NCBI GenBank assembly: GCA_030167145.1 | Contig: CP126532.1 | Coordinates: forward strand, 3,330,001 to 3,362,000 | Origin: Ktedonobacterales bacterium | Lineage (GTDB): Bacteria > Chloroflexota > Ktedonobacteria > Ktedonobacterales > JADMIN01 | Direction: 5' to 3' | Length of the DNA stretch: 32,000 bases | Shown here: positions 5,254 through 32,000 of the stretch, piece after piece | Layout: each line of letters begins with the position of its first letter | Position numbering within the stretch: position 1 is the stretch's first letter | Program-made: the position numbers and the translations under genes | The notes under the pieces: generated by a model | What the model was told of the DNA's origin: nothing | Databases searched by the model: none | What the model saw: the letters and a program-made list of their open reading frames with translations, nothing else

Positions 5254-5432
5254 ACGCTCCCTCTACGCTCTCTGGTGATGTCGTGGATGCGCTCCCCACC
5301 TGCGCCTCTTCAGTGTACCCGTATGGTGCTACACAAATGTGCCACAAGTGTGGCGATTTATGCGCCGCGCGGGGTGCCAGGGAATGCTATACTTGCTACG
5401 TATGCGTTGTGCGATATGGTTGAGGGAGCGAC

Positions 5433-6308
5433 ATGCCGGACTATCCGTCACCTACTATCTGGCGCGGCCACAGCCTGGACTGGGGCAGCCGCACCTACAT
5501 CATGGGCATCGTCAATGTGACGCCGGATTCGTTCTCGCGCGATGGCCTCGCCGCTGAGGACGCGACGCGCGAGCAGGTCGTGGCGGCGGCGGTGGCGCAG
5601 GCGCGGCGTATGGTGGCGGACGGCGCGCAGATGATAGATGTCGGCGGCGAGTCTACGCGCCCGGCAACCGCTGGCCAGCCGCCGCTCTCGCCGGAGGTGG
5701 AGCGCGAGCGCGTGCTGCCAGTGGTGAGCGCGCTGGCTGCCGCGCTGCCGCCGGAGGTGGTGATCTCGATTGACTCGTACCACGCGAGCACGGTGGCGGC
5801 GGCGCTGGATGCGGGGGCGTCGCTGATCAACGACGTGTGGGGGCTGCGCGCGGACCCAGAGATGGGGCCGCTGGTGGCCGAGCGCGGCGTGCCCATCGTG
5901 CTGATGTGCAACCTGCGGGGCGAGCCGCGCCGCGAGCCGGTGGCGGACGTGCTGCGGATGCTGGCGCGCGGCATGGAACTGGCGCTGAGCGCGGGCATCC
6001 CCGAAGATCGGATCATTCTCGATCCCGGCTTCGGGTTCGGACTGGTGGGCGCGGAAAACCTCGTGGTCTTGCGGCGGCTGCGCGAACTGCGGGCGCTGGG
6101 GCGTCCGCTGCTGGTGGGCACGTCGCGCAAGGCGCATATCGGCATGGTGCTAGGCACGGCGGAAGACGACCGCGTGGAAGGCACCGCCGCGACCGTGGCG
6201 CTGAGCATCGCCAACGGCGCGGACATTGTACGGGTGCATGACGTGCGGCAGATGGCGCGCGTCGCGCGGATGGCCGATGCGGTGGTGCGCGGCTGGCAAG
6301 AAACGTAA
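5433..6308 (+). CDS. folP: dihydropteroate synthase
   Basis: 291-aa ORF with GIVNVTPDSFSRDG, DVGGESTRP and DPGFGFG motifs. GAGGGAG SD upstream. Confidence 0.93.
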   Translation: MPDYPSPTIWRGHSLDWGSRTYIMGIVNVTPDSFSRDGLAAEDATREQVVAAAVAQARRMVADGAQMIDVGGESTRPATAGQPPLSPEVERERVLPVVSALAAALPPEVVISIDSYHASTVAAALDAGASLINDVWGLRADPEMGPLVAERGVPIVLMCNLRGEPRREPVADVLRMLARGMELALSAGIPEDRIILDPGFGFGLVGAENLVVLRRLRELRALGRPLLVGTSRKAHIGMVLGTAEDDRVEGTAATVALSIANGADIVRVHDVRQMARVARMADAVVRGWQET

Positions 6309-6320
6309 GGAACAATCCTG

Positions 6321-7718: not shown

Positions 7719-7741
7719 CGGCAGAAGGAGGCTCTGCGCCG

Positions 7742-8950: not shown

Positions 8951-8973
8951 GCGCAGGTGGCGGACGTGTGAGT

Positions 8974-9005
8974 GGCAGAGGCGTATGGGAGTCGAACCCA
9001 CCTCC
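8974..9005 (-). repeat. 32-bp tRNA 3'-end fragment (T-arm plus acceptor 3' strand plus CCA), left copy of a direct repeat (att-like)
   Basis: GGCAGAGGCGTATGGGAGTCGAACCCACCTCC is identical to 9976-10007. Its reverse complement reads GGAGGTGGGTTCGACTCCCATACGCCTCTGCC(A), which is a canonical GTTCGACTC T-loop. No tRNA body follows it. Confidence 0.7.
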
Positions 9006-9014
9006 TACCTGCGC

Positions 9015-9527
9015 TCAACTTCCCGTCAGGTGATTGAGCGGCGTATCTACCGTAAAGCTTTCCGCACGCGCTGCATCGCTCAGTCGCTTGTCTTCAGTGA
9101 GAAAGATGGGATCGCCCAACGCAGTCTCCCCTCTCGCTATTCGTGCCGCATCAGAGAGACGTGCAATGTCGCGGGCAGTAAGCGCACAGGCAAGCTGTAT
9201 CGCGTCATATCCTTTCAAAGCATGGATACTACATAAGTCCGCTGCGCGGCGCACGATAGAACTAACCACAGGAATGATGTTGTATTCACCGCCATCCACC
9301 TGACTCCAGAGCAGCACGAGGACATTCTCACAGAGTTTCTTACGCAAGATGCCGCCGCGCACCAGTTGATTGAGTGAGGCAGCAATTTCTGCTTCAGTGA
9401 CTTCCGCGAGCGCGATGGTATTCCGGCTGCCAGGTGTGCAAACGCGCTCGACCCAGACATGTCCAGGCGCACGTCTGAGCAAACGCGGTAAGAGCGCGCT
9501 GGTGTCAAGAAAATAGAGGGCAGGCAT
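9015..9527 (-). CDS. vapC: PIN-domain ribonuclease toxin (VapC-like)
   Basis: Begins MPALYFLDTSALLPRLL (PIN acidic residue in LDTS); later YDAIQLACAL and a C-terminal FLTEDKRL (PIN D). It sits downstream of a small antitoxin-like gene. An alternative start is at 9539. Confidence 0.8.
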   Translation of the reverse strand: MPALYFLDTSALLPRLLRRAPGHVWVERVCTPGSRNTIALAEVTEAEIAASLNQLVRGGILRKKLCENVLVLLWSQVDGGEYNIIPVVSSIVRRAADLCSIHALKGYDAIQLACALTARDIARLSDAARIARGETALGDPIFLTEDKRLSDAARAESFTVDTPLNHLTGS

Positions 9528-9570
9528 ACATCTCCACATCTCTTGCGCTTATGGTCTGTTTGTTATCTGT

Positions 9571-9939
9571 TCACCGTCGTTCGATCAGATCAAGAATACT
9601 CAGGCCGGATTGTTCGAGCGCATCGCTGAGGGCGTTGCCAACCTCCTCTTCGAGCTTGGCGCGCTCCGGGCTGCCTGTAGGGGGTAGGTCAGCAACGCCG
9701 GGATACGGAGGCAGACTCTTGGGATCAACCAGATAGCCATGTGAACGCATCATGGCAAGAAATTCCTCTTTTGCCGCTTGCGCCTGCTGTTCGGGCGATG
9801 GCGTGGTGTGTTGTGCGCTGAAACGCTCGGTGATAGCGGTGGCGGCTATCTCTTCGGGCGATTGGTGTGCTTGCTCGCCAGCGGCTTTAAGTGCTTCGTA
9901 GGCATCGTCTGGAAGGGAAATGGTAATGAATTTCGACAT
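9571..9939 (-). CDS. type II antitoxin candidate (RHH/CopG-like N-terminus) partnered with VapC
   Basis: ATG at 9937-9939 is preceded by a perfect AGGAGG SD. The product starts MSKFITISLPDDAYEALKAAGEQAHQSPEEIA (beta-strand plus helices as in RHH antitoxins). It lies 43 nt upstream of the PIN gene. The longer 170-aa ORF in the track reads through the tRNA fragment and is not credible. Confidence 0.65.
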   Translation of the reverse strand: MSKFITISLPDDAYEALKAAGEQAHQSPEEIAATAITERFSAQHTTPSPEQQAQAAKEEFLAMMRSHGYLVDPKSLPPYPGVADLPPTGSPERAKLEEEVGNALSDALEQSGLSILDLIERR

Positions 9940-9975
9940 AGATTTTTGACCTCCTGACGTTCCTTTCATGAGTTG

Positions 9976-10035
9976 GGCAGAGGCGTATGGGAGTCGAACC
10001 CACCTCCGACCGCACGGGCGGCCGGACAACGATTT
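9976..10035 (-). pseudogene. 3' half of a type-II / selenocysteine-like tRNA (anticodon loop to 3' end); 5' half absent; probable att junction
   Basis: The reverse complement reads CTTCAAAATCGTTG-TCCGGCCGC-CCGT-GCGGTCGGA-GGTGGGTTCGACTCCCAT-ACGCCTCT-G-CC. Features are a 9-bp variable-arm hairpin, a T-arm, an 8-nt acceptor strand and a G discriminator (the 8/5 geometry typical of bacterial tRNA-Sec), and a loop compatible with anticodon UCA (or CAA). No complementary 5' acceptor (AGAGGCGT), D-arm or 5' anticodon-stem strand exists upstream. Confidence 0.6.
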
Positions 10036-10147
10036 TGAAGACTGCTTCTGTACGTTTCGTATGGTTTCGTACCGTCTCATCACTCGACATGGACGCTGAA
10101 ATCTAGCCGCTTTCGTCTCACACTATACCATTCCGTTCAACGGCTCT

Positions 10148-10178
10148 GCTGTCAGTTTTGCTGTCAGTTTTGCTGTCA
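10148..10178. repeat. 12-bp tandem repeat GCTGTCAGTTTT x2.6 (intergenic)
   Basis: Read directly. It lies upstream of the first phage-like gene. Confidence 0.85.
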
Positions 10179-10246
10179 TGGTACGGCTGAGCTTCTTTGG
10201 GTTCGGCGGTACACAAGAATCGGGCGGATAGGTAGGTGGTCTTTGT

Positions 10247-10789
10247 ATGGAGTGGTTTCGGCTGTACAACGAGGCGTTGCATGATCGGAAGCTGCGACGT
10301 CTGCCGGTGGCCTATCGCTGGGTGTGGGTGGCGGTGCTGGCGATGGCGAGTGCGTCACCGGAACGTGGCGCGCTGCTGATCGCGGGGAACGTTCCCGCTG
10401 CGTTCGAGGATATGCAAGATACGGCGGCGGTGGACCTTGCCGACGTGCGCTCGGCGGTCTCTGCCTTCGAGCAGCAGGATATGCTGGTGCGTCGTGCTTC
10501 GGATGGCGCATGGGTGGTGGTCAACTGGCAGAAGCGGCAATTTATCAGCGATGCGCGGAAGGATGACGGTAGGCCGTCTGCCGAGGTCTGGCGTGAGCTA
10601 CGGGCGGCGGTGTTCGCACGAGATAACTACACCTGCCAGTATTGCGGCGCGCATGGTGTCTCGCTGCAATGCGACCATGTGATGCCCGTCAGTCGCGGCG
10701 GAAGCAACGAGCTTACAAACCTCGTGACGGCCTGCAAGCCATGCAATCTGTCGAAGCACGATAAGACACCGGAGGAGTGGCTGTCATGA
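10247..10789 (+). CDS. HNH endonuclease with N-terminal phage replication-organiser-like domain
   Basis: C-terminus YTCQYCGAHGVSLQCDHVMPVSRGGSNELTNLVTACKPCNLSKHDK is a canonical HNH. The N-terminus MEWFRLYNEALHDRKLRRL is paralogous to the N-terminus of the next gene. SD AGGTAGGTGG. Confidence 0.85.
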   Translation: MEWFRLYNEALHDRKLRRLPVAYRWVWVAVLAMASASPERGALLIAGNVPAAFEDMQDTAAVDLADVRSAVSAFEQQDMLVRRASDGAWVVVNWQKRQFISDARKDDGRPSAEVWRELRAAVFARDNYTCQYCGAHGVSLQCDHVMPVSRGGSNELTNLVTACKPCNLSKHDKTPEEWLS

Positions 10790-12021
10790 GCCGAAATACG
10801 GGTTGGTTTCGTTGCTACGACCGCATGATTGACTCGCCGCAGGTGCTCGACCTCTCGGATGCTGAGTTCCGGTTGCTGGTGAGCCTGTGGTGTTTGGCGA
10901 GCGCCGCCGAGACACGGGGCACGCTGCCCTACAACGCGAGGACGCTCCAACGGCGGGCCTTGCCAGATCACACCGTCGCTGAGGTGGAGCAGATGCTGTG
11001 TCACCTCATCGAGCTTGACCTGCTGGCGCAGGAAGAGGCAGAAGGGCAGGGATACCGCGTCGTCAGATGGGATGAGCATCAATATGTGCATGCCTCGTGG
11101 ACGCCGGAAGAGCGCCGCAAGCAAAAGGCGCTTGAACGCGAACGCGCGAGTTCCACGATGTCGCAAGCAGGTCGCAACGATGTCGCAACGATGTCGCAAG
11201 CTGTCGCAACACAGAGGCAGAGACAGATTACAGAGACAGAAGCAGAAGCAGATCTCTCCTCTCCAACCATTGTTACTAAAGATGATGGTCGTGATAGAGG
11301 CGGCGGAGGCGGAGAGAACGCGCGTGCGAGCGTATATGCGCGCGTGGCAGACTCACTGCCCGCTCCAGCATTCCCCGCCGCTGCCGCCAGTGCTCGATCT
11401 CCATCAGCAGAAAATGGTGAGCCAAAGAAGGGGAACCCCAAGCTGACGCAGATGGAGCGCTCCGAGCTTCGAGACCTCACCGGAGCGGTGGCGCGAGCCG
11501 CGAAATTGACGGCCTATGATGCGGCGGCGCTGGAAACGCTGGTCAGCCGCTATGAGGGGCATGGGCGGGCATGGTTGCTGGACGAGGCGTGCGCCGCCGC
11601 TGACTGGATTGCGAGCGAGCGGAATAAGAAGCTGAAGGAGAAGCAGCGACGGATGAATGTGGCGTTCTTGCGCAACTGGTTCAAGAAGTCCGAGGAGGGG
11701 TACGCCGGTGGACAACATGGACACGCAACCAATCAATCATCAGCAAGTGGGCAGCAATCTTGCGCTATCGGTTCCGCGTCGGCGGTTTCGGGACCTGGCG
11801 GGGTATCACCATCTGTCTCAGGCGCTCTCCCAGGCGCTTTCCCAGGATTCCCAGCAGGATTCCCCGGCAACGGACGAGGCCGATACAGTGGACCTGGGTC
11901 CTTCGGGGGACGGGTCGAGCCGGGGTCGCGGGAATATTGGGCGCTGCGCAGGCAAATCCGGGAGGAGCGCGAGCGACAGGAACGACAGGAAGCCGCCGTC
12001 TCCGCCGCAGGTTCCGCGTAG
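10786..12021 (+). CDS. phage replisome-organiser / DnaD-like replication protein (low-complexity C-terminal tail)
   Basis: ATGA start/stop overlap with the HNH gene. The N-terminus SRNTGWFRCYDRMIDSPQVLDLSDAEFRLLVSLWCLAS is of the same domain type as the HNH N-terminus. It is followed by a DnaC-like loader gene, the usual phage pairing. The true 3' end is uncertain (see findings). Confidence 0.6.
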   Translation: MSRNTGWFRCYDRMIDSPQVLDLSDAEFRLLVSLWCLASAAETRGTLPYNARTLQRRALPDHTVAEVEQMLCHLIELDLLAQEEAEGQGYRVVRWDEHQYVHASWTPEERRKQKALERERASSTMSQAGRNDVATMSQAVATQRQRQITETEAEADLSSPTIVTKDDGRDRGGGGGENARASVYARVADSLPAPAFPAAAASARSPSAENGEPKKGNPKLTQMERSELRDLTGAVARAAKLTAYDAAALETLVSRYEGHGRAWLLDEACAAADWIASERNKKLKEKQRRMNVAFLRNWFKKSEEGYAGGQHGHATNQSSASGQQSCAIGSASAVSGPGGVSPSVSGALPGAFPGFPAGFPGNGRGRYSGPGSFGGRVEPGSREYWALRRQIREERERQERQEAAVSAAGSA

Positions 12022-12046
12022 TGCTGCCGACCTGGCTGGGTGTGCG

Positions 12047-12793
12047 GTGTGCCCACGCTGCCACGACACGGGCTGGGTGCGCTCCGGCGTCTTCGGCGCG
12101 GAGACGGGCTGGCGTGTGGAGGTGGTGCGATGTGGCTGCCAGCGGGCGGCGGATCAGCGGCGGGTGTGGGAGCGGGCGCAGCGGATGAGCAATCTGTCGC
12201 CGGAGATGCGGCGACTCAGCTTCGATGGGTTCGATGCCGGGCGGCAGCCGGAAGCCTACGCGGTGATGCGGTCGTTCGCTGAGACGGTGACGGGGTGGGT
12301 GGTGCTGAACGGGGCGAGTGGGCTGGGCAAGACGCACCTGTTGGCGGCGGCGGCGAATGCGCTGCTGGCGGCGGGGCATGCGCCGGTGTATGTCGTCGCG
12401 GTGGACTTTCTGGATTATCTCAAGTCTGCTCTCAAAGCGGCGATGCGGAGCAGGCAAAACGGCGAAGAATCCGGGAGAGACGCCGATGATGGGTTCGAGA
12501 CGATGGAGCGGCGGATGGAGCAGGCGCGGACGTGTGAGGTGTTGCTGCTGGACGATCTGGCGGCGGAGCGGGAGACGGAGTGGTCGGTGGAGCGGTTCTA
12601 TGCGCTCTTGGAGTACCGCTACCGGAACGAGTTGCCGACGGTGCTGGCGAGCAACCTGCATCCCGAGGACTTTCCGGCGCGGGTGGCGTCGCGGCTGCAA
12701 GACCGGCGGTTGTGCCGGGTGGTGGAGCTGGAGGGCGCGGATTACCGGATTTCGCCTTCTTCGCTGAGCCGGGAACGGGGGCAGGCAGGATGA
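12047..12793 (+). CDS. DnaC/IstB-like AAA+ helicase loader with N-terminal CxxC...CxC zinc ribbon
   Basis: Walker A NGASGLGKTHLL and Walker B VLLLDDLAAE, then NELPTVLASNL. A GTG start at 12047 would give M-CPRCHDTGW...RCGC. The reading frame is open back to 11657, so the start is unresolved (alternative ATG at 11717). Confidence 0.75.
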   Translation: MCPRCHDTGWVRSGVFGAETGWRVEVVRCGCQRAADQRRVWERAQRMSNLSPEMRRLSFDGFDAGRQPEAYAVMRSFAETVTGWVVLNGASGLGKTHLLAAAANALLAAGHAPVYVVAVDFLDYLKSALKAAMRSRQNGEESGRDADDGFETMERRMEQARTCEVLLLDDLAAERETEWSVERFYALLEYRYRNELPTVLASNLHPEDFPARVASRLQDRRLCRVVELEGADYRISPSSLSRERGQAG

Positions 12794-13623
12794 ACGTGTT
12801 TTCGTTTGGCGGCGGGGTGCAGAGCACTGCCGCACTCGTGCTGGCCGCGCGTGGTGACTTGGATTGCGATGCCTTCCTGTTTGCGAATGTGGGCGATGAT
12901 AGCGAACACCCCGCCACGCTGCGCTATGTGCGCGAGGTGGCGATGCCTTATGCGGCAGCGCACAGCATCGAGTTGCATGAACTTCACCGCCAGCGCAAGG
13001 ACGGCAGCATCGAGACACTGTACGGGCGTCTCACACGACCTGGAAGCAAGAGCATCGGCATCCCCGTGCGACTCGCGGGCAGCGGTGCACCAGCGCAGCG
13101 AAACTGCACCGCCGACTTCAAAATACGAGTGATCGCGTCATGGTGCTACCGGCATGGCGCCCGCAAGATGAAGCCCGCCACTACTATGCTCGGCATCAGT
13201 ATGGACGAGTTCCAGCGTATGCGAACGGACAGCGGTATCTCCTACACGCGGCTGGCCTATCCGCTCATTGACCGGCGCATGTCGCGGCAGGATTGCATCA
13301 ACGTGATTGCCAGCGCAGGGCTGCCAGTGCCACCGAAAAGTTCGTGTTGGTTCTGCCCGTATCATCGCCTCTCGGTCTGGCAGCGCATGCGTGATGAGGA
13401 GCCAGATCTGTTTCGGAAAGCATGCGAGCTAGAGGCATCTCTAACAGCCCGTGCGAAAACACTGAAGCGCTACAGCCCGAAGGCGCTACCGCCAGAGCAG
13501 GAGGCGGTGTTCTTCACACGAACGATGAAGCCGCTCGCACAAGCGGTTGGCAACGCAAGTCAGCTATCTTTGTTCGATAGCTTTGAGGGTGATGTCTGTG
13601 AATCAGGTTTCTGCGTGGCGTGA
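12790..13623 (+). CDS. phosphoadenosine phosphosulfate (PAPS) reductase-family / PP-loop ATPase, phage type
   Basis: ATGA overlap with the loader gene. The N-terminus MNVFSFGGGVQSTAAL is a PP-loop SGGxxS-type motif. A C-terminal Cys cluster CWFCPY is as seen in phage PAPS-reductase/DndC-like proteins. Confidence 0.75.
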   Translation: MNVFSFGGGVQSTAALVLAARGDLDCDAFLFANVGDDSEHPATLRYVREVAMPYAAAHSIELHELHRQRKDGSIETLYGRLTRPGSKSIGIPVRLAGSGAPAQRNCTADFKIRVIASWCYRHGARKMKPATTMLGISMDEFQRMRTDSGISYTRLAYPLIDRRMSRQDCINVIASAGLPVPPKSSCWFCPYHRLSVWQRMRDEEPDLFRKACELEASLTARAKTLKRYSPKALPPEQEAVFFTRTMKPLAQAVGNASQLSLFDSFEGDVCESGFCVA

Positions 13624-14392: not shown

Positions 14393-15448
14393 ATGCGCGA
14401 CGATGAGGGGCAGGTTCAGGATCAGGAGCCACAGGAAACTGCAAAGAGCGACGAGAAGGCGGAGATGGCGGCGGCCGAGGTGGCAGAGGTGGCAGAGGTG
14501 GCAGAGGTGGAGCAGGAGGAGGCGATTGAGCAGCGGCCTGTGCCGTTTCTGGGAGATGACCTGGCGGCGGCGCTGACGCCGGGTGGGGTGGTGTATCTGA
14601 CGGTGGCGGGGGTGTGTCGGGCGCTGGGGTTGAACACGCAGGCGCAACTACGCCGGATGCTGCGGACGCCGAGCCTGGGGCGGCATCTGCGGGTGATTGC
14701 GCTGACGACTCGTGGTGGGGTGCAGCAGGCGTATTGTCTGCGGGTGGACAAGATTGCGCTGTGGCTGGCGGGGGTAGAAACGCTGAAGGTGAAGGAGCGG
14801 TATCGCGCGAAGCTGGAGGCGTATCAGGAGGAACTGGCGCCGGTGGCGATGCGGGTGTTTCTGCGGGTGGGCAGTGTCGCCGATATGCAGCGGACGCAGA
14901 TCGTCCGCGCGACGGAAGAGCCACGTGAGGGGCAGAGTGATCTACAGGTGCGGCAGGATACGGCACTGGTGGCGGTGGCGGAGCAGATCGAGGCGCAGAT
15001 CGAGAGCTTGACGGGGGTGGTGACGCTGCTGCAGGAGCATCTGGCGGGGCTGCTGGCCTTGCCGGGGCAGGTGGCAGGGATCTCGGTGCGGCTGGACAAG
15101 CTGGACGAGGCGGTGACGCTGCTCGAAGCCCTCGCCGAACGGCAGGAGGCGACGGAGACGCAGGTGGCGCAGATCGAGGAGCGGACGCAGCGGCTGACGC
15201 CAGCGCATGCGCGGGCGGTGCAGGTGGAGGTGGACCGGCTGGTGCGCGAGACGAAGCACGCAGTTGTGCCGCTGACGTATGTGATGATCTATGGGCGGCT
15301 GAAGCATCGGTTCCGAGCGAGTTCGTATAAGGAGATTGCGGACGGGCGGTTCGCGGAGGTGCTGGCATTTCTGGGGGAGGAGTTGCGGCGGGCGCTGGGT
15401 GGGACGGGGGAGAGAGGGGAGGCGCCGGAGCAGGGGAGTCTGTTTTGA
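14393..15448 (+). CDS. phage antirepressor (P22_AR N-terminal-like domain plus ORF6C-like C-terminal domain)
   Basis: PVPFLGDDLAAALTPGGVVYLTVAGVCRALGLNTQAQLRRM...ALWLAGVE...KLEAYQEE matches the P22 antirepressor N-domain pattern as I recall it. The C-terminus is LTPAHARAVQVEVDRLV...YGRLKHRF. SD GAGGTGGGAG. It contains the 9-bp repeat GAGGTGGCA x3.8 (14477-14510; AEV repeats). Confidence 0.7.
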   Translation: MRDDEGQVQDQEPQETAKSDEKAEMAAAEVAEVAEVAEVEQEEAIEQRPVPFLGDDLAAALTPGGVVYLTVAGVCRALGLNTQAQLRRMLRTPSLGRHLRVIALTTRGGVQQAYCLRVDKIALWLAGVETLKVKERYRAKLEAYQEELAPVAMRVFLRVGSVADMQRTQIVRATEEPREGQSDLQVRQDTALVAVAEQIEAQIESLTGVVTLLQEHLAGLLALPGQVAGISVRLDKLDEAVTLLEALAERQEATETQVAQIEERTQRLTPAHARAVQVEVDRLVRETKHAVVPLTYVMIYGRLKHRFRASSYKEIADGRFAEVLAFLGEELRRALGGTGERGEAPEQGSLF

Positions 15449-15499: not shown

Positions 15500-16672
15500 T
15501 TAATAATGTGCGTCCAAATAGGAGGTGTTGCGCGGTGCTGTTCTTCGCCGCTTGCCGAATACCTCTTCCTCTAGGAGCGCGAGATTATGCAGTGCCATAT
15601 CGTGCCGAGTACGCGAGATATCGTGGACGAAGACCTCGGCTGCGCTCTTGTATCCCTGCATGGCCTCGTCGAGGAGGCGCTCTCTTGCGCCCGACATATC
15701 GCTCAGCATATCGGCGTGTGCTTGCGCGTGGAGTACGAGAGCCAGGTTATAGCGTGTCGTGGCCCACTCAAGTGGTTGGGCTTCGCGTGAGCGAATCTGA
15801 AGCGCTTGCCTATAAGCGTCAGCAGCTTGCTGTAAGAGGTCGTTGCGCTCATCGCGCTCCTCATCGCCCTGTTTGGCCTTCGCCCATTCGGCCAAGGTAA
15901 CGCCGAGATTGTTTTGGAGTTTCGCCCAAAACTGGGGATGCTCGGCACGGGTGTAGATGCGCTGTGCTGCTCGAAAGGCAGCGAGCGCGGCCTCAATTGC
16001 GGCCATGGTCTCGTCGTTGGTCTCGTCGTTGGTCTCGTCGTTGGTCTCGTCGTTGGTCTCGTCGTTGGTCTCGTCGTTGGTCTCGTCGTTGCTACCCTCA
16101 TACGCTAGCTTGAGCTGCCCCTGAGCGAGCAAGGCCAGTCCGAGGTGGTGTTGAACGGTAGCCCAGCGTGTAGGATGGTCTTCGAAGGTAAAGATCCGCA
16201 GCGTCTCTCGGTGTGACGTGATGGCTTCCGCGAGCAATTCCATCCTGGCAGAGATAGCTGTTGTTGTTTGTACGCGCGCTAATTTCGATAAGGCGACTCC
16301 CAAATTGTCCAGGACACCTCCCCACGTGCCAGGCGCATCTTCTCGGCGTATCGCCTGTAAGGTTGCACGGAAGGAGGCGATGGACTGGGTCAAGCGGACT
16401 TCCTCTGCCAGGGTCGGGGTGGTACGCAGACGTTCGACAACTGCCTGACCACGCGGCGTCAGGGTCACCTGGTCATGGTCGAGACCCAGGTAATCGAAAT
16501 CTATCAGCCAACGAATTGCGTCGTTGAGGGAGATATCGTCTGCGAAGTGGTGGCGAAAGTCGGCCTCCGTCGCGCAGAGACCTGAGTCAATCGCCCACAA
16601 TACGAATGCGAGGGTCTGCTCATTCGTAATGGCCGCGGACTCCCATAGCGTCTGGCTGTCATCTGGTTCCAT
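15500..16672 (-). CDS. winged-helix plus TPR-like repeat protein with (NDET)7 insertion; second gene of a two-gene operon
   Basis: 390-aa ORF. The first ~90 aa look wHTH-like (LAFVLWAIDSG...LNDAIRWLIDFDYLGLDHDQVTLTPRGQAVVERL). Then come repeated about 40-aa units of the type W..vq.NLG.AL......R...L.eAi.a.r.AL.i.tre..P. A perfect 12-bp x7 repeat (16007-16090) encodes NDET x7. The start is 2 nt after the upstream gene's stop. Confidence 0.75.
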   Translation of the reverse strand: MEPDDSQTLWESAAITNEQTLAFVLWAIDSGLCATEADFRHHFADDISLNDAIRWLIDFDYLGLDHDQVTLTPRGQAVVERLRTTPTLAEEVRLTQSIASFRATLQAIRREDAPGTWGGVLDNLGVALSKLARVQTTTAISARMELLAEAITSHRETLRIFTFEDHPTRWATVQHHLGLALLAQGQLKLAYEGSNDETNDETNDETNDETNDETNDETNDETMAAIEAALAAFRAAQRIYTRAEHPQFWAKLQNNLGVTLAEWAKAKQGDEERDERNDLLQQAADAYRQALQIRSREAQPLEWATTRYNLALVLHAQAHADMLSDMSGARERLLDEAMQGYKSAAEVFVHDISRTRHDMALHNLALLEEEVFGKRRRTAPRNTSYLDAHY

Positions 16673-16674
16673 TA

Positions 16675-17304
16675 TCAGCCACAGCTTTCTCGATCCTGCT
16701 CGAGATCCTGCTCGAGATCCTGCGGAAAGGCGGCATACATCTCACGCCGCGCCTGGGCACACGCCATCGCCTGCCCCAACAGATTACAGGCGACGATATC
16801 CTCGTGCTGATACCAGTAGATGGCGTTATAGCCTTTTGCCAGGTTCATCAAGACACTGTGTGCGGCGAAGCCAGCTTGATAGCGCACAGGCGCCATTACG
16901 CGCAACTTATGCGCGATTTCGGGCCGACCACCGTAGAGGACGGTTTCGGCCAGAGCGCCGGGAGCATCTTCGATAAGGCTAAATATCAAGTGCGCAGCTC
17001 TCGCCTGGGAAAGTTCATCGGTACCAAGCGTAATGCCATCGTGATGCTCCGGCGGAGCTATTTGCTCGCTTAGCAGCGCATTGTGGCCTTCGGCGAGTAA
17101 CTCGTCTTGAATCTGAAGGCGTTTTGTTGCCACAGCACTGTTACTTGTGGGATCTGGCCCCCAGATCAAAATGGTCAAGGCGATGCTTTGTAGCGCCTCA
17201 AGATGCGCGCTGCGTCGTACAAGGAACCGTTCCATCTCGCGCTTCGCCTTGTCGGTGTGGGGGCGTGGCAGCGTGTAGGTCGTGCGTGGGGGCGTAGATG
17301 GCAT
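16675..17304 (-). CDS. Rossmannoid TIR-like / nucleoside 2-deoxyribosyltransferase-like domain protein (start uncertain: 17235, 17304, 17367 or 17391)
   Basis: TILIWGPDPTSNSAVATKRLQIQDELLAEGHNALLSE ... ELSQARAAHLIFSLIEDAPGALAETVLYG. This has the strand-GP-helix then acidic-residue/G..E layout of deoxyribosyltransferase/TIR-like folds. That is my motif-level judgement, not a search. The C-terminal DLEQDLEQD is encoded by a 12-bp repeat (16689-16722). Confidence 0.55.
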   Translation of the reverse strand: MPSTPPRTTYTLPRPHTDKAKREMERFLVRRSAHLEALQSIALTILIWGPDPTSNSAVATKRLQIQDELLAEGHNALLSEQIAPPEHHDGITLGTDELSQARAAHLIFSLIEDAPGALAETVLYGGRPEIAHKLRVMAPVRYQAGFAAHSVLMNLAKGYNAIYWYQHEDIVACNLLGQAMACAQARREMYAAFPQDLEQDLEQDRESCG

Positions 17305-17515
17305 AGGCGTGTGGACTCGCTTCCCGGTTCCATACTTGTACCTGTCAAGCACTAGTAGGTATGTCATACATGATGGCGACCACGGTGTCAAGTTTGATTG
17401 CTCCGGTGAGATGACGTGAAATTCAGGTCACAGCATGGATGCGCCGTGGGGTGGATGACCGACAGAGATGAGAGATAGCCAAAGATAGCCAGAGAGAGCA
17501 ATCATTGCGCCTGGT

Positions 17516-25413: not shown

Positions 25414-25979
25414 GCGGAAGCGGAGGGAGCGCGTTACGGGTGGCCTATGCTGATCCGCCCTACATTGGGCAGGCGCGTAAGCACTACCGTCACGACCCGC
25501 GCTGTGCCGAAGTGGACCACGGCGAGCTCATTGCACAGCTCGTCGCAGAGTTCCCGGACGGGTGGGCGCTCTCGTGCAGCTCTCCTTCGCTCGCGCACCT
25601 GCTGCCGCTGTGCCCGCCGGATGTGCGGGTGATGGCCTGGGTCAAGCCATTCTGCTCATTCAAGCCGGGGGTGAATCCGGCGTATGCGTGGGAGCCGGTG
25701 CTGGTGCATGGCGGGAACGGGAGAAGGCGACGTGGGCGGCGAGAGCCAACGGTGCGGGATTGGGTGAGCGCGAACGTGACGCTGCGGCGCGGACTGGCGG
25801 GGGCGAAGCCGGAGGCGTTCTGTCACTGGTTGTTCGCGGTGCTGAACCTGCGCCCTGGCGACGAGTTGGTAGACCTCTATCCAGGGACGGGCGCGGTCTC
25901 GGCTGCGTGGGAGCGATGGTGTCGCGGTCTGTGGGTCGGTGGTTGTGGTGTGAATGGTGATGAGGCGGTGATAGCATGA
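25410..25979 (+). CDS. small N6-adenine (DPPY-type) DNA methyltransferase
   Basis: N-terminal YADPPY (motif IV) and C-terminal VDLYPGTGA (motif I, FxGxG-like). This permuted order is as in beta-class amino-MTases. ATGA overlaps occur at both ends (25410 and 25976). Confidence 0.7.
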   Translation: MSGSGGSALRVAYADPPYIGQARKHYRHDPRCAEVDHGELIAQLVAEFPDGWALSCSSPSLAHLLPLCPPDVRVMAWVKPFCSFKPGVNPAYAWEPVLVHGGNGRRRRGRREPTVRDWVSANVTLRRGLAGAKPEAFCHWLFAVLNLRPGDELVDLYPGTGAVSAAWERWCRGLWVGGCGVNGDEAVIA

Positions 25980-28900
25980 CACTCTTGAAGCTCGGCTATA
26001 GCAATCCGTTGACGGATAGCTTTGGCGCGCATCCGGTGCTGGGGCCGGTGCTGGACCTGAACGATGGGGCGACCTATACGCTGCTCGCGCCTGAGGTCGG
26101 CGGTATCGAACTCAGCCCACCACCGAGGACGATTGCGCTGGCGGGCAACATCAGGACGCAGGGCGAACGGGCGACGCGGGCGCTGTATCGCCATAACCGC
26201 GAGGTGCGCGTGCCGTTGCTGCTGGGGCCGATGTCGTCCTACGCGGCGCTCACCAGCGCCATCCGCACGCTGCTGCGCTGGGTGAATGCGGCACCCCAAA
26301 CCCCGCTGACACTGCTGTATCAGCCACCGAACGCCAGCGCGCCCGTCTACCTGGATGTGGTGGGTGCGGCGCACTCGCTGCCGGAGAGTGAGGCCGATTG
26401 GCTACGTCTCCAATTAGAGCCGGTGGAACTGGTGTTTATCTGCCGCCCAGGACTGCGCGGCGATAGGGTGACGCTCCAGAATCTTGTCGCCAATCCAGGC
26501 TTCGAGCAGGGGTCAGGCCCAGGGGTTCCGGTCTTCACTGAACTGTTCGCCAACCTCGCGGCGTACACGCAGGTCGCTGGTTCCGCGCCCACGCTGGCTC
26601 CGGCCAACACCTTTGTGGACGCGCTGATGGCCAATGGTGGCTCGTCGCTGTTGGCCTACTACCGGCTGGATGAAGCGAGCGGGACAAGTGTCTATGACAT
26701 CGCGGGGCAGGGGTATACGGGCACGACGCATGGGAGTCCTACGCAGAACGTGGCGGGGTTACTGGCAGGGGATACGGATACCTGCTATACGTTTGCCTCG
26801 GCCTCCTCGCAATACGTGAGCGTGCCCAGCACGAGCAGCTTTCCCAGCGGCAACAGTCCGCTCACCGTCGGGGTGTGGTTCAAGATCAGCGCGGCTCCCG
26901 CGAGCACGGCGCAACTGTGGAGCTACGGGGACATCACGACGGGCCATCATGCGCTCTCGCTGTATCTGGCGACCACGGGCAAGCTGACCTGTGATGTGGG
27001 CGCGGGCGCGTCGGTCATTTCCTCGGCTTCAGCCGTCTCGAACGGCGTAGCGCACTTCGCGGCGTTGACGTGGGACGGGACCACGCTGACGCTGTGGCTG
27101 GATGGGGTGAGCCAGGGCACGGCGACTCCCGGCGCGCAGAGCGTGCCCAGCACTCCTACCGTCAATTTGGGGGCGAATGCGACGCCAGCGGCGTACTTCA
27201 GCGGGCAACTGGATGAGGCGGGGATCTGGTCGGCGGCGCTGACGAGTGGGCAGATCTCCGCGATCTACACGGCGGGTCACGCTGGCGCGAGCGGGACGCT
27301 GGCCTCCGCCTTCTCGCTGCCTGCTAGTGGGCAGGTCAGTTTCGGCAGCGCGCAATGGAGCAGCATCAATAGCTGGCAACTACGGTTCCGCTACACCGCC
27401 AGCCTGACGCTGCGCGCGTTTCTGCACTATGTGGATGGCAACAACTATGTGCAGGCGCAGGTGACGGGGACACAACTCAGCCTCGCGCACAAGGTGGCGG
27501 GTGTGTTCACCACCATCCAGACGGTGACGATTAACGGCACAGCCGGCCTGACGTATGAGGGCTGGTACTGGCTGCAATGCACGCAGTTCCCGACGGTGAA
27601 CGCCACAGCGACCACACAGTTTCCTAGCGTCAACGCCAACTATCCGTATCTCACGGCGGCGGTGAGCTACGATGACAACGGGGCGGTGGGCGCGCAGATC
27701 GCGGCGGCAGCGGGGCCAGCGGTAGACACGGCGATTGCGCTGACGGGCAAGCCGCAGATCCTCGCGCAAGGGGCGGCGCTCGTCGTGGGTGGGAATGTGG
27801 TCAACCTGTTTGGTCCGGGTGGGTGGTCAGTGGCGACCGGCGGCGGCGCGGGCGGGCTGGCGGTGACGGGGGTGGCTATCGGCAGTTGGGAGCAGAGTAG
27901 CGCCAACCTGCCACCGCTGGGACTGCAAAACGCGAATGCGGCGAATGCGGTGCAAGTGCCAGTGCAGAGCTATGGCTGCGCACGGCTGGATATTCCCGCT
28001 GGTTCCACCGCCATAGATAGCCGCTGGCAGACACCGACGAGCGGGTTCGGGCCAAATGGCCTCATCCCGCTTCCAGGTTCCGGCGGCGCAGGGGTCACGC
28101 TGGCCTATGCCTTCGCCGCCAACTCCACGGGGTTCGCGGCAACGGCGCGGGTGCAACTCTACTGGACGGAGTACACCAGTAGCGGCTCCGCCCTGGGGAC
28201 ATATCAGGCGGCGAGCGTGACGCCACCGAATGGCTGGCAGGGGTATGCCAGTACCTTCGTGACGCAGAACGGTGGGGCCAATGGGTGCGCCGCGATCTCG
28301 CTGTTCATTCGTGCGCTGGACACGGCGACGGGGACGAGCGTGGGGGCGACGCTGTGGCTCGACAATGTGCAGGTGTGGTCGGTCTCCGCGACAGGGCTAG
28401 CGGTGGGAGCCATGCCCTACTGCGAGCTGCGGTTCCCACAGTCGCCCGCGCAACTGGTGCTAAGCGGGTTGCTGGGCGATCTGCCATGTCCGGCGGCGCT
28501 GGCATGGGGCACGTATGTGGGGTCTGGTGTCTCGACGCTGCCGCAGGGTGGGGCGCTGAGCTTCGCCATCGGCAGGAGCGCGCAGCCTTCCGCGACGGCA
28601 CGGCTGACGGCCAGCATGAACGGGTTTTATGGCAGCGCACTGGGCGCGGGGCAGCAGGCGACGGCGGCGCTGGACGCGACGGCCTATGGCGGCTACACCA
28701 TCTCGAACAATCCGCAGACGGGGTGGAGCGCGAAGGGATTCGCGCCACTGGCCAGTGATGCGCCAGGAGTGTATCATCTGCTCGAACGGTTCCTCTCCGC
28801 GCAGAGCGTGGGCAACCTGCCCAACGTGCAGGTGCGGGCGAACACGCAGCAACGGTTGCTGCCGTGGTTCGGAGCGACGAGTAGCGCCGACCAGTTGGGC

Positions 28901-29500
28901 AATAGTTACGGGCCGTATGCGGCGCTGCTGACGGCCTCCAACACGTGGACGGTGGTGGACACGGGGCAGGTGACGCTGCCACCGTACAGCCAGGGGGCGC
29001 TGACGGACCCGACGCAGACGTATCTGGTGCCACATCCGCAGTGGCAAGACCTGACGGGTGGAGGCTCAGGCGGGGCCATGTGTAGCGCGAGCTGGTGCGC
29101 GCTGCTGCCCATAGATGGGTCGCTGCTGGTGGGGGTGGTGAACAATCCGAGCAATGCGGCTTCGGCGCTGGCGAACACGTGGCTGTGGACGTACTTCGAT
29201 GGGTTGCTGGTGAACCGTGCGGGGGCGCAAGATGCGCCAGGGTGGCTGTATTCGCTCGAAGCGGTAGCGACGCCGAACGCGGGACATGCGGGCGGTGGGC
29301 CAGGGACACAGGGAACGGGGAATGTGAACGTGAATTCGGGGGCGGACCCGTATCTCATCCTCGACCCCACGGCGGCGCTACCACAGAGCGGACAGCGTGG
29401 GGTGAATCAACTGGTGGCATATGTGGCGGACCAGGCGGGTGCGGTGCTGGGATTTGCAGGCGAGGTGAGCTACGCGCCGCTGTATCTGTGGCCTCGGTAG
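25976..29500 (+). CDS. large phage tail fibre / receptor-binding protein with LamG (concanavalin-A-like lectin) domain
   Basis: 1174-aa ORF. LLAYYRLDEASGTSVYDIAG...LTVGVWFK...HFAALTWDGTTLTLWLDGV...FSGQLDEAGIWSAALT is a Laminin_G_3-type pattern. The rest is Gly/Ala/Thr/Ser-rich, as in fibres. Confidence 0.75.
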   Translation: MTLLKLGYSNPLTDSFGAHPVLGPVLDLNDGATYTLLAPEVGGIELSPPPRTIALAGNIRTQGERATRALYRHNREVRVPLLLGPMSSYAALTSAIRTLLRWVNAAPQTPLTLLYQPPNASAPVYLDVVGAAHSLPESEADWLRLQLEPVELVFICRPGLRGDRVTLQNLVANPGFEQGSGPGVPVFTELFANLAAYTQVAGSAPTLAPANTFVDALMANGGSSLLAYYRLDEASGTSVYDIAGQGYTGTTHGSPTQNVAGLLAGDTDTCYTFASASSQYVSVPSTSSFPSGNSPLTVGVWFKISAAPASTAQLWSYGDITTGHHALSLYLATTGKLTCDVGAGASVISSASAVSNGVAHFAALTWDGTTLTLWLDGVSQGTATPGAQSVPSTPTVNLGANATPAAYFSGQLDEAGIWSAALTSGQISAIYTAGHAGASGTLASAFSLPASGQVSFGSAQWSSINSWQLRFRYTASLTLRAFLHYVDGNNYVQAQVTGTQLSLAHKVAGVFTTIQTVTINGTAGLTYEGWYWLQCTQFPTVNATATTQFPSVNANYPYLTAAVSYDDNGAVGAQIAAAAGPAVDTAIALTGKPQILAQGAALVVGGNVVNLFGPGGWSVATGGGAGGLAVTGVAIGSWEQSSANLPPLGLQNANAANAVQVPVQSYGCARLDIPAGSTAIDSRWQTPTSGFGPNGLIPLPGSGGAGVTLAYAFAANSTGFAATARVQLYWTEYTSSGSALGTYQAASVTPPNGWQGYASTFVTQNGGANGCAAISLFIRALDTATGTSVGATLWLDNVQVWSVSATGLAVGAMPYCELRFPQSPAQLVLSGLLGDLPCPAALAWGTYVGSGVSTLPQGGALSFAIGRSAQPSATARLTASMNGFYGSALGAGQQATAALDATAYGGYTISNNPQTGWSAKGFAPLASDAPGVYHLLERFLSAQSVGNLPNVQVRANTQQRLLPWFGATSSADQLGNSYGPYAALLTASNTWTVVDTGQVTLPPYSQGALTDPTQTYLVPHPQWQDLTGGGSGGAMCSASWCALLPIDGSLLVGVVNNPSNAASALANTWLWTYFDGLLVNRAGAQDAPGWLYSLEAVATPNAGHAGGGPGTQGTGNVNVNSGADPYLILDPTAALPQSGQRGVNQLVAYVADQAGAVLGFAGEVSYAPLYLWPR

Positions 29501-29548
29501 CGTGAGGTGAGCCGCGGGAAATAACTGAGGGAGAAGGGAGGACGGAAG

Positions 29549-29938
29549 ATGAGCGAGGGACGTGAGGAATACCGGACGCGGAAGCGCGATCATCTGAAGA
29601 TAGTGCAGCAGGATTCCCAGCAGGATTCCCAGCCGGGCGCTGATGATGCTGGTAAAGATGCAGTCGGCGGAGACGTCGGTGCTGTGTCTGGTGGTGCGCT
29701 CGCCAATGCGATCATGTATGCCTGCACAGGGTGGGTGGCGTTGTGCATGGAGCGGACATGTGCGAGCGTGGATGTGCAGCCGATTGCGGCGCGGCTGTAT
29801 GAGGCGGCGGTGACGTTGGAGCCGAAGGCGGAGGGCGAGGGTTGGGAGTGTCAGCCGGATACTGTCTTGCTGCGGGTACGGTTGGAGGTGGAGGTTGGGC
29901 TGATCGTGCGGACGGTGGTGGAGCCGGTTAGGCCATAA
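29549..29938 (+). CDS. hypothetical protein
   Basis: 129-aa ORF with a GGGAGAAGGGAGGA SD. It contains the 12-bp repeat CAGCAGGATTCC x2.2 (29606-29632). Confidence 0.45.
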   Translation: MSEGREEYRTRKRDHLKIVQQDSQQDSQPGADDAGKDAVGGDVGAVSGGALANAIMYACTGWVALCMERTCASVDVQPIAARLYEAAVTLEPKAEGEGWECQPDTVLLRVRLEVEVGLIVRTVVEPVRP

Positions 29939-30079
29939 GGCGGAGGCATGGCTGATTCAACCTGTGGCACACCCAGCAGTGAGTTGCACCTACTAGAAGG
30001 ATCTCGTGTATTTCTAGTGCTGACTGGTCGTTGCTAACGAGAAATGTGGTCATTAAGAAGCGCGAAGTATAACCCGCCG

Positions 30080-32000
30080 TCAATTGAAAGTATTGAACGA
30101 ACCTTCAGTGGTCTCCTCGTCAAATACAAGTTCATCTTGACTGATGAATCTCATTAGAATGTCGTGGTCAAGAATTACCGTTTCCTGACTCAAAGGTCGG
30201 CTCGGTATGCCGACACTTTCCTGATTTATTCCATGTACTAGCTGCTGAAATGCGGATGGAAAGTCGTCTCTGTCGCGGAAGTCCACCCATTGGAAAGAGC
30301 CCAAAAAGCTACCTAGCAAAGCATCCATGGGACACCCGACGAGAATGCACGGAATGATTGGGATACCCTTCTGATGGTGACGCTCTAGCAGAATGACAAG
30401 CTCTTTCTTCTGATAGGGTCCGAGGCCATGTTCGCCACAAAAGATGGCCGCGGATTTACACGATGCAAGCGCGCGCACAATTTGATCCATCCACTCCTGC
30501 CCTGGGATGGAATCCCACATCTGAAAATATGGTCTAATACCGCGAAGTGTTAGCTCTTTGGCGTATTGTGACACTTCCTTTGCATCATGCGAGTTGTAAC
30601 TTATGAATACGTCACGTTGGTCAACATCATCTTTACCTCTTAATGTCATCGCTGCAACAGCAAGGCTAAGGGTGTGGTCAGCACGCTTCTCCATTTCAAT
30701 TAAGTCTTGGGATTGTTGGGATTGTAGGCCCGATTCTGCGCTTCCACTATGGTCGAATACTAACGGCGTTCCACAGTAAGAGCAAAAGGCTTGATTTCGA
30801 CTGTCATTGATGAGATCTTGCATTTGGGATGGGTTGACTCGCTTCCCACATTCGGTGTTGGGGCAATGAACTATTCTGTGCATTTGTATGGTTCCACGAA
30901 CCGCGTGTATGCGTAGATGATTTACGACAAATTCCTCAAATGTTTGCAGAGTCCTATTTGACGCCCCAACATGAAACAAAGTCAAATGGCCGGGCCCGAT
31001 CCCATCGTCTCGCAGGAGCAATCCGCATGTTCCACCAGCGGTAGCAGTGAAGGTAACTGCACCCTTATATACCTGTGGCTCTCGAAATAAACCGGAGTTC
31101 GCAATGCGTGTGGCAAGCGATGCATATATGAGCTGAATTCGTCCTCTAAACTCGATCACGGCGATCATATTGTCAGGTTCGTCGGGGTAGATGCTCGGTT
31201 TGCTTGCCTGCGAGGGGAACACAAGACATTCGTCGCCTTGTGCTGATCCAACGTTTTCGCGCATGGCCAATTCATGCCCAAGGAGGTCTCGCACCATTTC
31301 TACAATCAGCGTACGTTCTTGAGATTTGTCCTGTATGCGCTCATCAGCGGGAATAGGAAAGTCGCAAGCCTCCACTCTCTTGAGCGGGATACTTCCGAGC
31401 CCATCCTCTGCCTCTCTAACGGCATTGAGCAGCGCTGATGCATAGGTATCAAGTTTTTCTGGTCGAAGCAGGACATAGCTACCGAAGCTGAATCGTCTGA
31501 CCAATCCTGCGTTCTCGAGGTAGAATATGGCAGTCTCGAACTGGGTACGTGTGACTGTTATTGAGTCATCGCGGAAGCTCGAATGCCCGTAAGTCTCGTA
31601 CAGTTCTGACATAGTTGATAGGACGGACTTAGGGTTCCGGACACTTGCATTCATGACGAAGCGCATGACACGGATGAAAACATGAGACGAGTATATAGGT
31701 GTAAGCGAATCCCACTGCACAGAGCGAATGATCTTATCTTTGAGCGCATCTGTACCTAATGCGTACTTTGCACTGGTCTCAACATAGTCGTCGTAGCCAA
31801 GATCTCTGACAATCTCTCGAATGCGCGTGCGGTTCGTCCCAATGCCTGCTAAATCTGACTTACCAGCGACCAGGAACTTGGGCAAACGCCGGGTACCAGT
31901 AAGGCCCTCTTTCTGAGCGTCGCGAAGAGCGTGGTCCCAAAATAAGATTCTGTCGAGCGGATCTGCAGACTCACTATCGAACACGACTACCGCAACCGCG
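30080..32000 (-). CDS. Roc/Ras-like GTPase - COR-like winged-helix region - zinc ribbon - C-terminal TIR domain protein (N-terminus beyond window)
   Basis: The frame stays open to the window edge (AVAVV precedes the track's GTG start). GTPase G4/G5 motifs are FLVAGKSDL and ETSAK. The COR-like part is FETAIFYLENAGLVRRF...YVLLRPEKL. The zinc ribbon is CPNTEC...CSYC. The TIR domain is DVFISYNSHDAKEVSQYAKELTLRGIRPYF...GPYQKKEL. Local GC is 40-45% in hand-counted lines. Confidence 0.85.
   Translation of the reverse strand, partial: AVAVVVFDSESADPLDRILFWDHALRDAQKEGLTGTRRLPKFLVAGKSDLAGIGTNRTRIREIVRDLGYDDYVETSAKYALGTDALKDKIIRSVQWDSLTPIYSSHVFIRVMRFVMNASVRNPKSVLSTMSELYETYGHSSFRDDSITVTRTQFETAIFYLENAGLVRRFSFGSYVLLRPEKLDTYASALLNAVREAEDGLGSIPLKRVEACDFPIPADERIQDKSQERTLIVEMVRDLLGHELAMRENVGSAQGDECLVFPSQASKPSIYPDEPDNMIAVIEFRGRIQLIYASLATRIANSGLFREPQVYKGAVTFTATAGGTCGLLLRDDGIGPGHLTLFHVGASNRTLQTFEEFVVNHLRIHAVRGTIQMHRIVHCPNTECGKRVNPSQMQDLINDSRNQAFCSYCGTPLVFDHSGSAESGLQSQQSQDLIEMEKRADHTLSLAVAAMTLRGKDDVDQRDVFISYNSHDAKEVSQYAKELTLRGIRPYFQMWDSIPGQEWMDQIVRALASCKSAAIFCGEHGLGPYQKKELVILLERHHQKGIPIIPCILVGCPMDALLGSFLGSFQWVDFRDRDDFPSAFQQLVHGINQESVGIPSRPLSQETVILDHDILMRFISQDELVFDEETTEGSFNTFN

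Follow-up and report, generated by a model that had tools for sequence, protein, structure and literature searches.

A WD40-Roc-COR-like-TIR protein encoded by a recently transferred low-GC gene in a mobile island of a Ktedonobacterales genome: a candidate single-protein immune receptor

The window analyzed here, i.e. the whole stretch of 32,000 nucleotides from a Ktedonobacterales bacterium (GenBank assembly GCA_030167145.1, contig CP126532.1, positions 3,330,001 to 3,362,000), ends within a minus-strand open reading frame (ORF) of low G+C content (GC), and this locus raises the question of what type of protein the ORF encodes, where it came from and whether its product protects the cell against invaders. 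From the nucleotide sequence alone (hereafter the sequence-only reading), it had been taken for a foreign Roc/COR GTPase fused to a zinc ribbon and a TIR domain. The identity of the gene product as a fusion of an N-terminal WD40 propeller, a Roc-type GTPase, a COR-like domain, a zinc ribbon and a C-terminal TIR domain (WD40-Roc-COR-like-ZnR-TIR; the gene is termed WD40-Roc-TIR in the following) is hardly in doubt. A function as immune sensor that operates by abortive infection is rated as somewhat better than even. The generalization that the protein represents a class of single-protein immune receptors, in which a small GTPase takes the place of the STAND ATPase and a profile-cryptic Roc-COR module drives a TIR NADase, a DUF4365 nuclease or a class III cyclase, is put forward as a tentative proposal.

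The minus-strand ORF extending from position 30080 is open as far as base 31999 and runs past the end of the window (for the coordinates of all features see Table 1). A homologue search retrieved a protein of 1028 aa (P0001) that is 100% identical to the window fragment and is encoded on a 5.07-Mb JGI contig; the surrounding 23 kb were taken as locus L001 (window coordinate = 43167 − L001 coordinate). The longest ORF of this locus, L001:9536-13087, comprises 1183 uninterrupted codons; the extension of the contig recommended in the sequence-only reading thus yielded an intact frame, so that an upstream disruption of the gene is excluded. Given a GTG start, the 5' part outside the window occupies the window-equivalent positions 32001-33631. 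The public gene call relies on a TTG start at L001:10001, by which the first WD40 blade is cut short; the alignment with homologues reaches upstream of this TTG and thus places the true start farther upstream, where an ATG (resulting in approximately 1096 aa) and the GTG at L001:9536 (1183 aa) are available. The GTG start would add approximately 155 N-terminal residues (L001:9536-10000; window-equivalent 33167-33631) with two hydrophobic segments, one of them strong (Kyte-Doolittle values up to 2.4), that are followed by the basic cluster RRNAPRRPKR; from its sequence, this extension, which is without counterpart in the aligned homologues, is a possible membrane anchor.

Numbered on the 1183-aa ORF, the domains follow each other in the order of a 7-bladed WD40 propeller (approximately 140-410; Pfam), a Roc/Ras domain (468-638), a middle domain of 280 aa, a four-cysteine zinc ribbon, a long helix and the TIR domain. 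The supposition that the part beyond the window might carry a sensor has therefore been borne out by the Pfam analysis of the full protein, which identified the WD40 beta-propeller. The assignment of a Roc-type GTPase likewise held, with E values of 1.3e-13 for Roc and 1.4e-12 for Ras in the full protein; the match of the window fragment to Ras reached an E value of only 0.056, owing to the location of one half of the G domain outside the window. The nearest PDB sequences to the Roc domain are those of Rab29 and Rab32. The G1 (GEQSVGKS) and G3 (DLAGQ) motifs, both beyond the window, are intact, and the G4 and G5 motifs recognized in the sequence-only reading are present: among the relatives, G1 (GxxxxGKS/T) was found in 78/78, G3 (WDxAGQ) in 77/78 and G5 (ETSAK/R) in 59/78 proteins. 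The G4 motif reads GKSD in the protein under study and occurs in the family as the specific variant [AG]RxD, with the guanine-specifying Asp retained.

For the middle domain, predicted structure and sequence comparison gave different answers: the proposed COR-like segment is upheld by the former but not by the latter. No Pfam COR match was obtained with either the fragment or the full protein, and a profile of the middle domain searched against the PDB did not retrieve any Roco or LRRK chain even at E values up to 10. Two AlphaFold2 models were calculated with a 17-sequence alignment as input, one of the full-length protein (predicted local distance difference test score (pLDDT) 79.9, predicted template modeling score (pTM) 0.80) and one that extends from Roc to the C-terminus (pLDDT 80.3, pTM 0.82). 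The Foldseek matches of the full-length model were mostly to WD40 proteins, and the propeller-free model was used for the COR comparison. According to this model, the ranks 1-16 among the PDB matches are all occupied by LRRK1/LRRK2 (E values of 2e-17 to 9e-13) with 535-591 aligned columns, which corresponds to the length of Roc, COR-A and COR-B together; rank 17 is the RocCORdC fragment of Methanosarcina barkeri Roco2 (4wnr) with a template modeling score of 0.57 on the target, and plain Ras/Rab domains rank after MbRoco2 with only approximately 175 columns aligned. A COR-like nature of the middle domain is thus supported by its predicted fold, not by its sequence.

The zinc ribbon, at about 30770-30865 (CPNTEC...CSYC), had been proposed from the CPxxxC...CxxC arrangement, and its four cysteines proved to be invariant in 17/17 homologues; the more general C..C(15-35)CxxC pattern is present in 55/78 relatives. 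Similarly, the TIR domain with its DVFISY start (30596-30613) was corroborated by the Pfam match TIR_2, which in the full protein covers residues 1008-1132 at an E value of 1e-19 (5e-20 in the fragment). In comparison of the family TIR profile with the PDB, AbTir scored best (E value of 1e-14; the PDB entry is named 'NAD(+) hydrolase AbTIR'), followed by AtTIR, PdTIR, the CRISPR-associated Cat1 and Roq1. Within the QKKEL motif, the Glu that had been singled out as the conserved candidate (codon 30401-30403; E922 of P0001) is invariant in the 15 TIR-bearing homologues; its counterparts in the alignment are the Glu residues of WTNYEL in AbTir, WPQKEL in PdTIR and CLDEL in AtTIR, which are the catalytic residues of these enzymes. 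E922 is accordingly predicted from the alignment as the catalytic residue of an NADase-type TIR domain.

These data also bear on the reading that the TIR domain does not consume NAD+ and is a non-enzymatic interaction scaffold or a virulence-type TIR directed against a eukaryotic host. Many TIR domains, e.g. those of TLRs and MyD88, are indeed scaffolds, and these match the family profile too, though more weakly; the best profile matches, however, are enzymatic TIR domains, and the catalytic Glu is invariant. As to virulence, the N-terminal membrane segment is only a possible one that depends on the choice of the start codon, and a secreted Tcp-type TIR was rejected as identity of the protein on account of its structure as a cytoplasmic WD40-GTPase fusion of approximately 1000 aa, which is unlike the secreted Tcp-type effectors. 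A TIR domain without NADase function is considered hardly credible.

The second part of the question concerns the origin of the gene. The fall of the GC at the convergent gene junction, from which the foreign origin had been derived, is real and amounts to a decrease from approximately 0.64 to 0.49. In detail, the 300-bp windows showed values of 0.61-0.69 up to 29999, of 0.51 at 29850-30149 and of 0.45-0.52 from 30000 to the window end; by 500-bp windows, a mean GC of 0.640 (standard deviation 0.041) before 29500 compares to 0.492 after 30000 (z of approximately −3.6), and the GC at third codon positions (GC3) is 0.49 in the WD40-Roc-TIR ORF versus 0.70-0.87 in the adjoining genes. The composition shift is located in the 141-nt spacer between the plus-strand ORF that ends at 29938 and the stop codon of the minus-strand ORF (30080-30082). 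The low-GC segment corresponds to L001 ~9110-13228 (4.1 kb, GC of 0.505, with a GC of 0.65 on both sides) and contains a single gene together with its upstream spacer. Since the members of the family elsewhere normally match the GC of their flanks (mean difference −0.001, standard deviation 0.041), the family as such is not characterized by low GC, and the offset of −0.15 at the Ktedonobacterales locus is therefore a mark of recent transfer: the WD40-Roc-TIR gene is a recently transferred single-gene insert in this genome, in line with the foreign origin claimed before. A similar GC deficit was encountered in 3/80 other family loci, i.e. in a Thermoanaerobaculia, an Actinophytocola and a Bacteroidales metagenome-assembled genome (L013, L053 and L054, respectively; 0.11-0.15 below flank GC), which suggests a repeated recent transfer of the family into genomes of higher GC.

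The insert is not positioned at the right edge of the surrounding island, as had been assumed in the sequence-only reading: past the WD40-Roc-TIR gene, the island extends by no less than 9 kb with further high-GC ORFans. Around the low-GC insert, a search for flanking repeats, att sites and tRNAs revealed nothing convincing. At the junction, a weak terminator-like hairpin directly follows the stop codon on its 3' side; such sites were not found above their chance count.

A gene that was acquired recently might be inert cargo, decaying or silent in its host. Its codon usage is strongly mismatched (GC3 of approximately 0.5 versus 0.8) and its start codon is uncertain, with the start of the gene caller truncating the first WD40 blade, and both points speak in favor of such a state. 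On the other hand, the frame of 1183 codons is uninterrupted and the catalytic and zinc-binding residues are all intact; furthermore, a promoter-like site (TTGCCA-17-TACAAT) is present 60 nt upstream of the GTG, though sites of this kind do not exceed the chance count. Inert cargo is regarded as highly improbable.

The third part of the question, the function, was approached by a comparison of the relatives. A hidden Markov model (HMM) scan with the middle domain in 1.84 billion representative sequences resulted in 2049 clusters of 50% identity at E ≤ 1e-3 and 1052 clusters at E ≤ 1e-30, and in most of the matching clusters the middle domain is located at approximately residue 500 of a protein of approximately 1000 aa. 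The idea of a rare family, based on 18 proteins from a k-mer-filtered single-sequence search, was rejected as a prefilter artefact in view of the 2049 clusters of the full HMM scan. In the GTDB contigs (one genome per species), relatives were present at 234 loci, and the taxa concerned include Ktedonobacteria, Chloroflexia, Nostoc, Calothrix, Planctomycetota, Acidobacteriota and Actinoplanes. At a few loci (L040, L061) two paralogues reside in one genome.

The relatives differ most at their two ends. The N-terminus is a WD40 propeller in 73 of the nearest loci, and with a mean pairwise identity of 0.31 it is the most divergent part of the protein (Roc: 0.57; COR-like domain: 0.50). The C-terminal domain was determined in 79 species genomes as TIR_2 (50), class III adenylate/guanylate cyclase (22) or AAA_21 (1), and a more distant metagenomic branch without WD40 carries a C-terminal DUF4365; the effector position is thus swappable on a conserved core. 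The cyclase in place of TIR was observed at L005, L017 and L040 among others, which corresponds to about one quarter of the nearest relatives. According to an all-against-all BLAST of the flanks of 80 loci, no neighbor gene is conserved across phyla, and synteny is confined to the genus level. The immediate neighbors are heterogeneous, and the only recurrent ones are other TIR_2 proteins (4/99; a descriptive Pfam count).

TIR NADases require self-association for activity, and class III cyclases are obligate dimers. The DUF4365 nuclease of SPARDA is activated through filament formation (PMC12205087). In consequence, the three alternative output domains are inferred to share activity only upon self-association. 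Roco proteins undergo a dimer-monomer cycle with GTP turnover (PMC5714945). Because the Roc-COR module is a nucleotide-dependent dimerization device and all three outputs would be active only in the self-associated state, a nucleotide-gated proximity switch is the most economical model for the family. At rest, the protein would keep its TIR domains separate or occluded; binding of a trigger, most likely a protein of a phage or another invader, by the fast-evolving WD40 propeller as the presumed sensor would alter the nucleotide state of Roc, and the Roc-COR module might then shift its dimeric or oligomeric state as the canonical Roco proteins do. The TIR domains would thereby be clustered to form composite active sites that could cleave NAD+, with its depletion and/or the formation of a cyclic ADP-ribose (cADPR) isomer as the result, and the cell would be arrested or die before the invader spreads. 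The gene would act alone, i.e. without an operon partner.

Several observations weigh against this immune mechanism. With respect to the switch itself, GTP was reported to cause monomerization of CtRoco (PMC5714945), so that either nucleotide state may be the one in which the TIR domains cluster; the G4 variant could result in an altered nucleotide affinity; and the COR assignment is solely based on predicted structure, as compared by Foldseek ranks and aligned lengths. An experimental study of a Roc-TIR protein, or of any other member of the family, was not found in the literature searched. With respect to a role in defense, no relative was detected in the IMG/VR viral contigs, and no system model of PADLOC-DB v2 was matched (weak partial matches concerned bSEFIR on the TIR domain, E value of 2.5e-4, and a HEAT-ARM model on WD40). 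In the two fully read genomic contexts and among the 99 scanned immediate neighbors, mostly housekeeping genes and not defense islands were encountered, and the cyclase output of 22/79 relatives is equally compatible with ordinary second-messenger signaling and with immunity.

The findings on genomic context, cyclases and database searches at the same time support the main rival to the immune reading, according to which the protein has a signaling or cell-death role: WD40-Roc-COR would be a general switch of complex, often multicellular bacteria in housekeeping or developmental signaling, and TIR just one of its outputs that either generates a cADPR-type messenger or brings about regulated death in development or kin discrimination. 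The concentration of the family in Cyanobacteria, Chloroflexota, Planctomycetota, Acidobacteriota and actinomycetes points in the same direction. However, cyclases of the class III type also serve in Pycsar defense, the DUF4365 nuclease among the outputs is a destructive effector, and TIR genes are recurrent in the neighborhood. In addition, the recent arrival of the gene as a foreign insert of a mobile island, which harbors another sensor of putative NADase type (see below), fits poorly to an integrated developmental role. A signaling function is, in consequence, regarded as rather unlikely, and the immune reading is retained.

Is such a protein new? The sequence-only reading had called the layout poorly characterized in bacteria, which is correct as regards experiments, whereas computationally the architecture class had been described by Kaur et al. 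2021 (eLife, PMC8195603). These authors reported prokaryotic conflict systems of AP-GTPase (Roc) and COR with N-terminal leucine-rich repeats (LRR) and at least 24 alternative C-terminal domains including TIR, which were predicted to act against invaders and are overrepresented among bacteria that have a complex life style (Fig. 6D therein and its source data); their supplement lists a few 'BetaPropeller+AP-GTPase+TIR' entries, e.g. HFS11412.1 from Anabaena with 1179 aa. Because the same architecture is contained in this supplement, the Ktedonobacterales protein is a further member of an already catalogued kind. It shares with the AP-GTPase conflict systems the general plan of repeat sensor, Roc-type GTPase and variable C-terminal effector. 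Their core class, however, possesses LRR and a COR domain that is detectable by sequence, in contrast to the WD40 propeller and the domain that is COR-like by predicted structure only in the present case. For the propeller entries, neither COR nor a zinc ribbon is annotated. The present analysis makes three modest additions, namely a COR fold that sequence profiles miss, a zinc ribbon that is conserved and, for this subfamily, outputs that comprise TIR, cyclase and DUF4365.

The canonical Roco proteins (C. tepidum Roco, M. barkeri Roco2, LRRK1/LRRK2, DAPK1) resemble the protein in that Roc is directly followed by a two-lobed COR-like domain, and by analogy their nucleotide-dependent dimer-monomer cycle (PMC5714945) is the likely mode of action of its module as well. 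They differ in that the Ktedonobacterales protein has no LRR, no kinase and TIR as output, that its WD40 propeller is N-terminal, whereas it is C-terminal in LRRK, that its COR domain is undetectable by profile and that its G4 motif is [AG][KR]xD instead of NKxD; in a 2019 review of Roco proteins, all prokaryotic representatives then known were of the LRR-Roc-COR type. With the STAND/NLR sensors (Avs, bNACHT, plant TNLs, Apaf-1) it has in common the three-part plan that combines a repeat sensor, an NTPase switch and a death effector, including the TIR effector of plant TNLs and the WD40 propeller sensor of Apaf-1. Membership in STAND/Avs was rejected, since the only NTPase is a Ras-superfamily GTPase and no NB-ARC, NACHT or AAA_16 match was obtained; these sensors are analogues of a protein whose switch consists of a Ras-superfamily GTPase with COR.

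The short-Argonaute systems SPARTA and SPARDA (PMC10810196, PMC12205087) likewise have either TIR or DUF4365 as effector, and in them the same effector pair is combined with a conserved sensing core and activated through induced oligomerization; in these systems, however, the core is a guide-loaded Argonaute with APAZ and without a GTPase, and homology is confined to the effector. The AbTir-type bacterial NADases are the closest relatives of the TIR sequence (E value of 1e-14) and share the context of the catalytic Glu. AbTir and Thoeris ThsB are small proteins or parts of two-gene systems, whereas in the present case a protein of approximately 1100 aa carries TIR as its C-terminal module. A Thoeris system was rejected: no ThsA-like (SIR2/Macro-SLOG) partner is located nearby, the neighbors being ORFans of 129 and 74 aa, and no conserved partner was found across 80 loci.

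If the immune reading is true, bacteria would possess a second route to NLR-like receptors, in which a Ras-type GTPase with COR replaces the STAND ATPase; in its fold, the module would be a relative of the Roc-COR core that is found in LRRK2, the Parkinson's disease protein, and in the death kinase DAPK1. The family would then constitute a new anti-phage defense system and at the same time a simple bacterial model for the coupling of the Roc-COR nucleotide state to an enzymatic output. It is a candidate for the former and tractable for the latter because the family is large (>1000 clusters at 50% identity) and would act as a single gene whose output, NAD+ cleavage, is simple to assay.

Table 1. 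Positions of the features of the WD40-Roc-TIR gene and of its host island in the window.
Feature	Position	Strand	Basis or remark
3' part (1.9 kb; 639 codons + stop) of the 1028-1183-codon ORF, WD40-Roc-COR-like-ZnR-TIR	30080..32000	-	Open translation; identity to P0001
Roc GTPase, C-terminal half; G4 GKSD 31853-31864, G5 ETSAK 31766-31780	31721..32000	-	Pfam Roc/Ras; PDB Rab29/Rab32
COR-like middle domain, ~280 aa; helical/winged-helix part, then alpha/beta part (predicted)	30887..31720	-	AlphaFold2, pLDDT mostly 80-95; Foldseek
Four-cysteine zinc ribbon HCPNTEC ... CSYCG	30752..30886	-	Cys conservation; weak Zn-ribbon Pfam matches
Low-confidence linker, then ~30-residue helix ending in invariant GK before TIR	30623..30751	-	AlphaFold2, H517-548 of model; alignment
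TIR domain, Pfam TIR_2	30236..30610	-	TIR_2 E 5e-20 (fragment); best profile match AbTir
Acidic C-terminal tail, ~43 aa, predicted disordered, one short helix	30083..30211	-	pLDDT < 50; homologues end just past TIR
Intergenic convergent junction, left boundary of the 4.1-kb low-GC insert	29939..30079	.	Composition profile
Phage_rep_org_N+HNH (replisome-organizer/HNH) gene	10247-10789		
DnaC/IstB-like ATPase	11657-12793		
Ant antirepressor	14393-15448		
Two adjoining ORFs, 390 and 238 aa, GC 0.57-0.58 (below surroundings)	15500-17391	-	No Pfam or PADLOC match
DUF4062 - weak AAA_16 (STAND-like) - many TPR protein, 867 aa	19798-22401	-	
Laminin_G_3 (LamG) protein, 1174 aa; end adjoins the low-GC insert	25976-29500	+	PHROG matches: large virion structural proteins

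The WD40-Roc-TIR gene is cargo embedded in a larger mobile, phage-derived island with a GC of 0.65. The bases 1-8950 of the window encode housekeeping functions (molybdopterin oxidoreductase, histidine kinase, a dihydropteroate-synthase-like protein, a Mur-ligase-type folylpolyglutamate-synthase-like protein and LarC); from approximately 9000 onward, the content becomes phage- or mobile-like with many ORFans, and the left boundary of the island is likely situated at about 8950-9100. Directly after the end of LarC at 8950, the GC dips to 0.53-0.56 at 9000-10000. Neither a tRNA nor an integrase was seen in the window, and PHROG and Pfam scans of the ORFans beyond the WD40-Roc-TIR gene gave no match. 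As to the DUF4062 protein, a 2026 preprint reported that DUF4062 is a TIR-like NADase which the Swarozyc anti-phage system employs as its effector. On the basis of this report, the domain composition marks the protein as a second candidate sensor with an NADase-type effector domain, so that the island would harbor two independent proteins of the repeat sensor/NTPase/NADase type, and the WD40-Roc-TIR gene may serve as a flag for such an island in the Ktedonobacterales genome. The pair of low-GC ORFs at 15500-17391 may represent another foreign two-gene cassette.

The acidic tail of 43 aa behind the TIR domain is present only in the Ktedonobacterales protein and in none of the aligned homologues. 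The 129-aa ORFan adjoining the WD40-Roc-TIR gene inside the window extends from 29549 to 29938, and the protein encoded by the preceding LamG gene is, judging from its matches, probably of the tail-fiber or receptor-binding type. The positive GC skew is unusually strong (0.21-0.35) at 28950-29999, a region that covers the 129-aa ORF in front of the junction together with the 3'-terminal part of the LamG gene.

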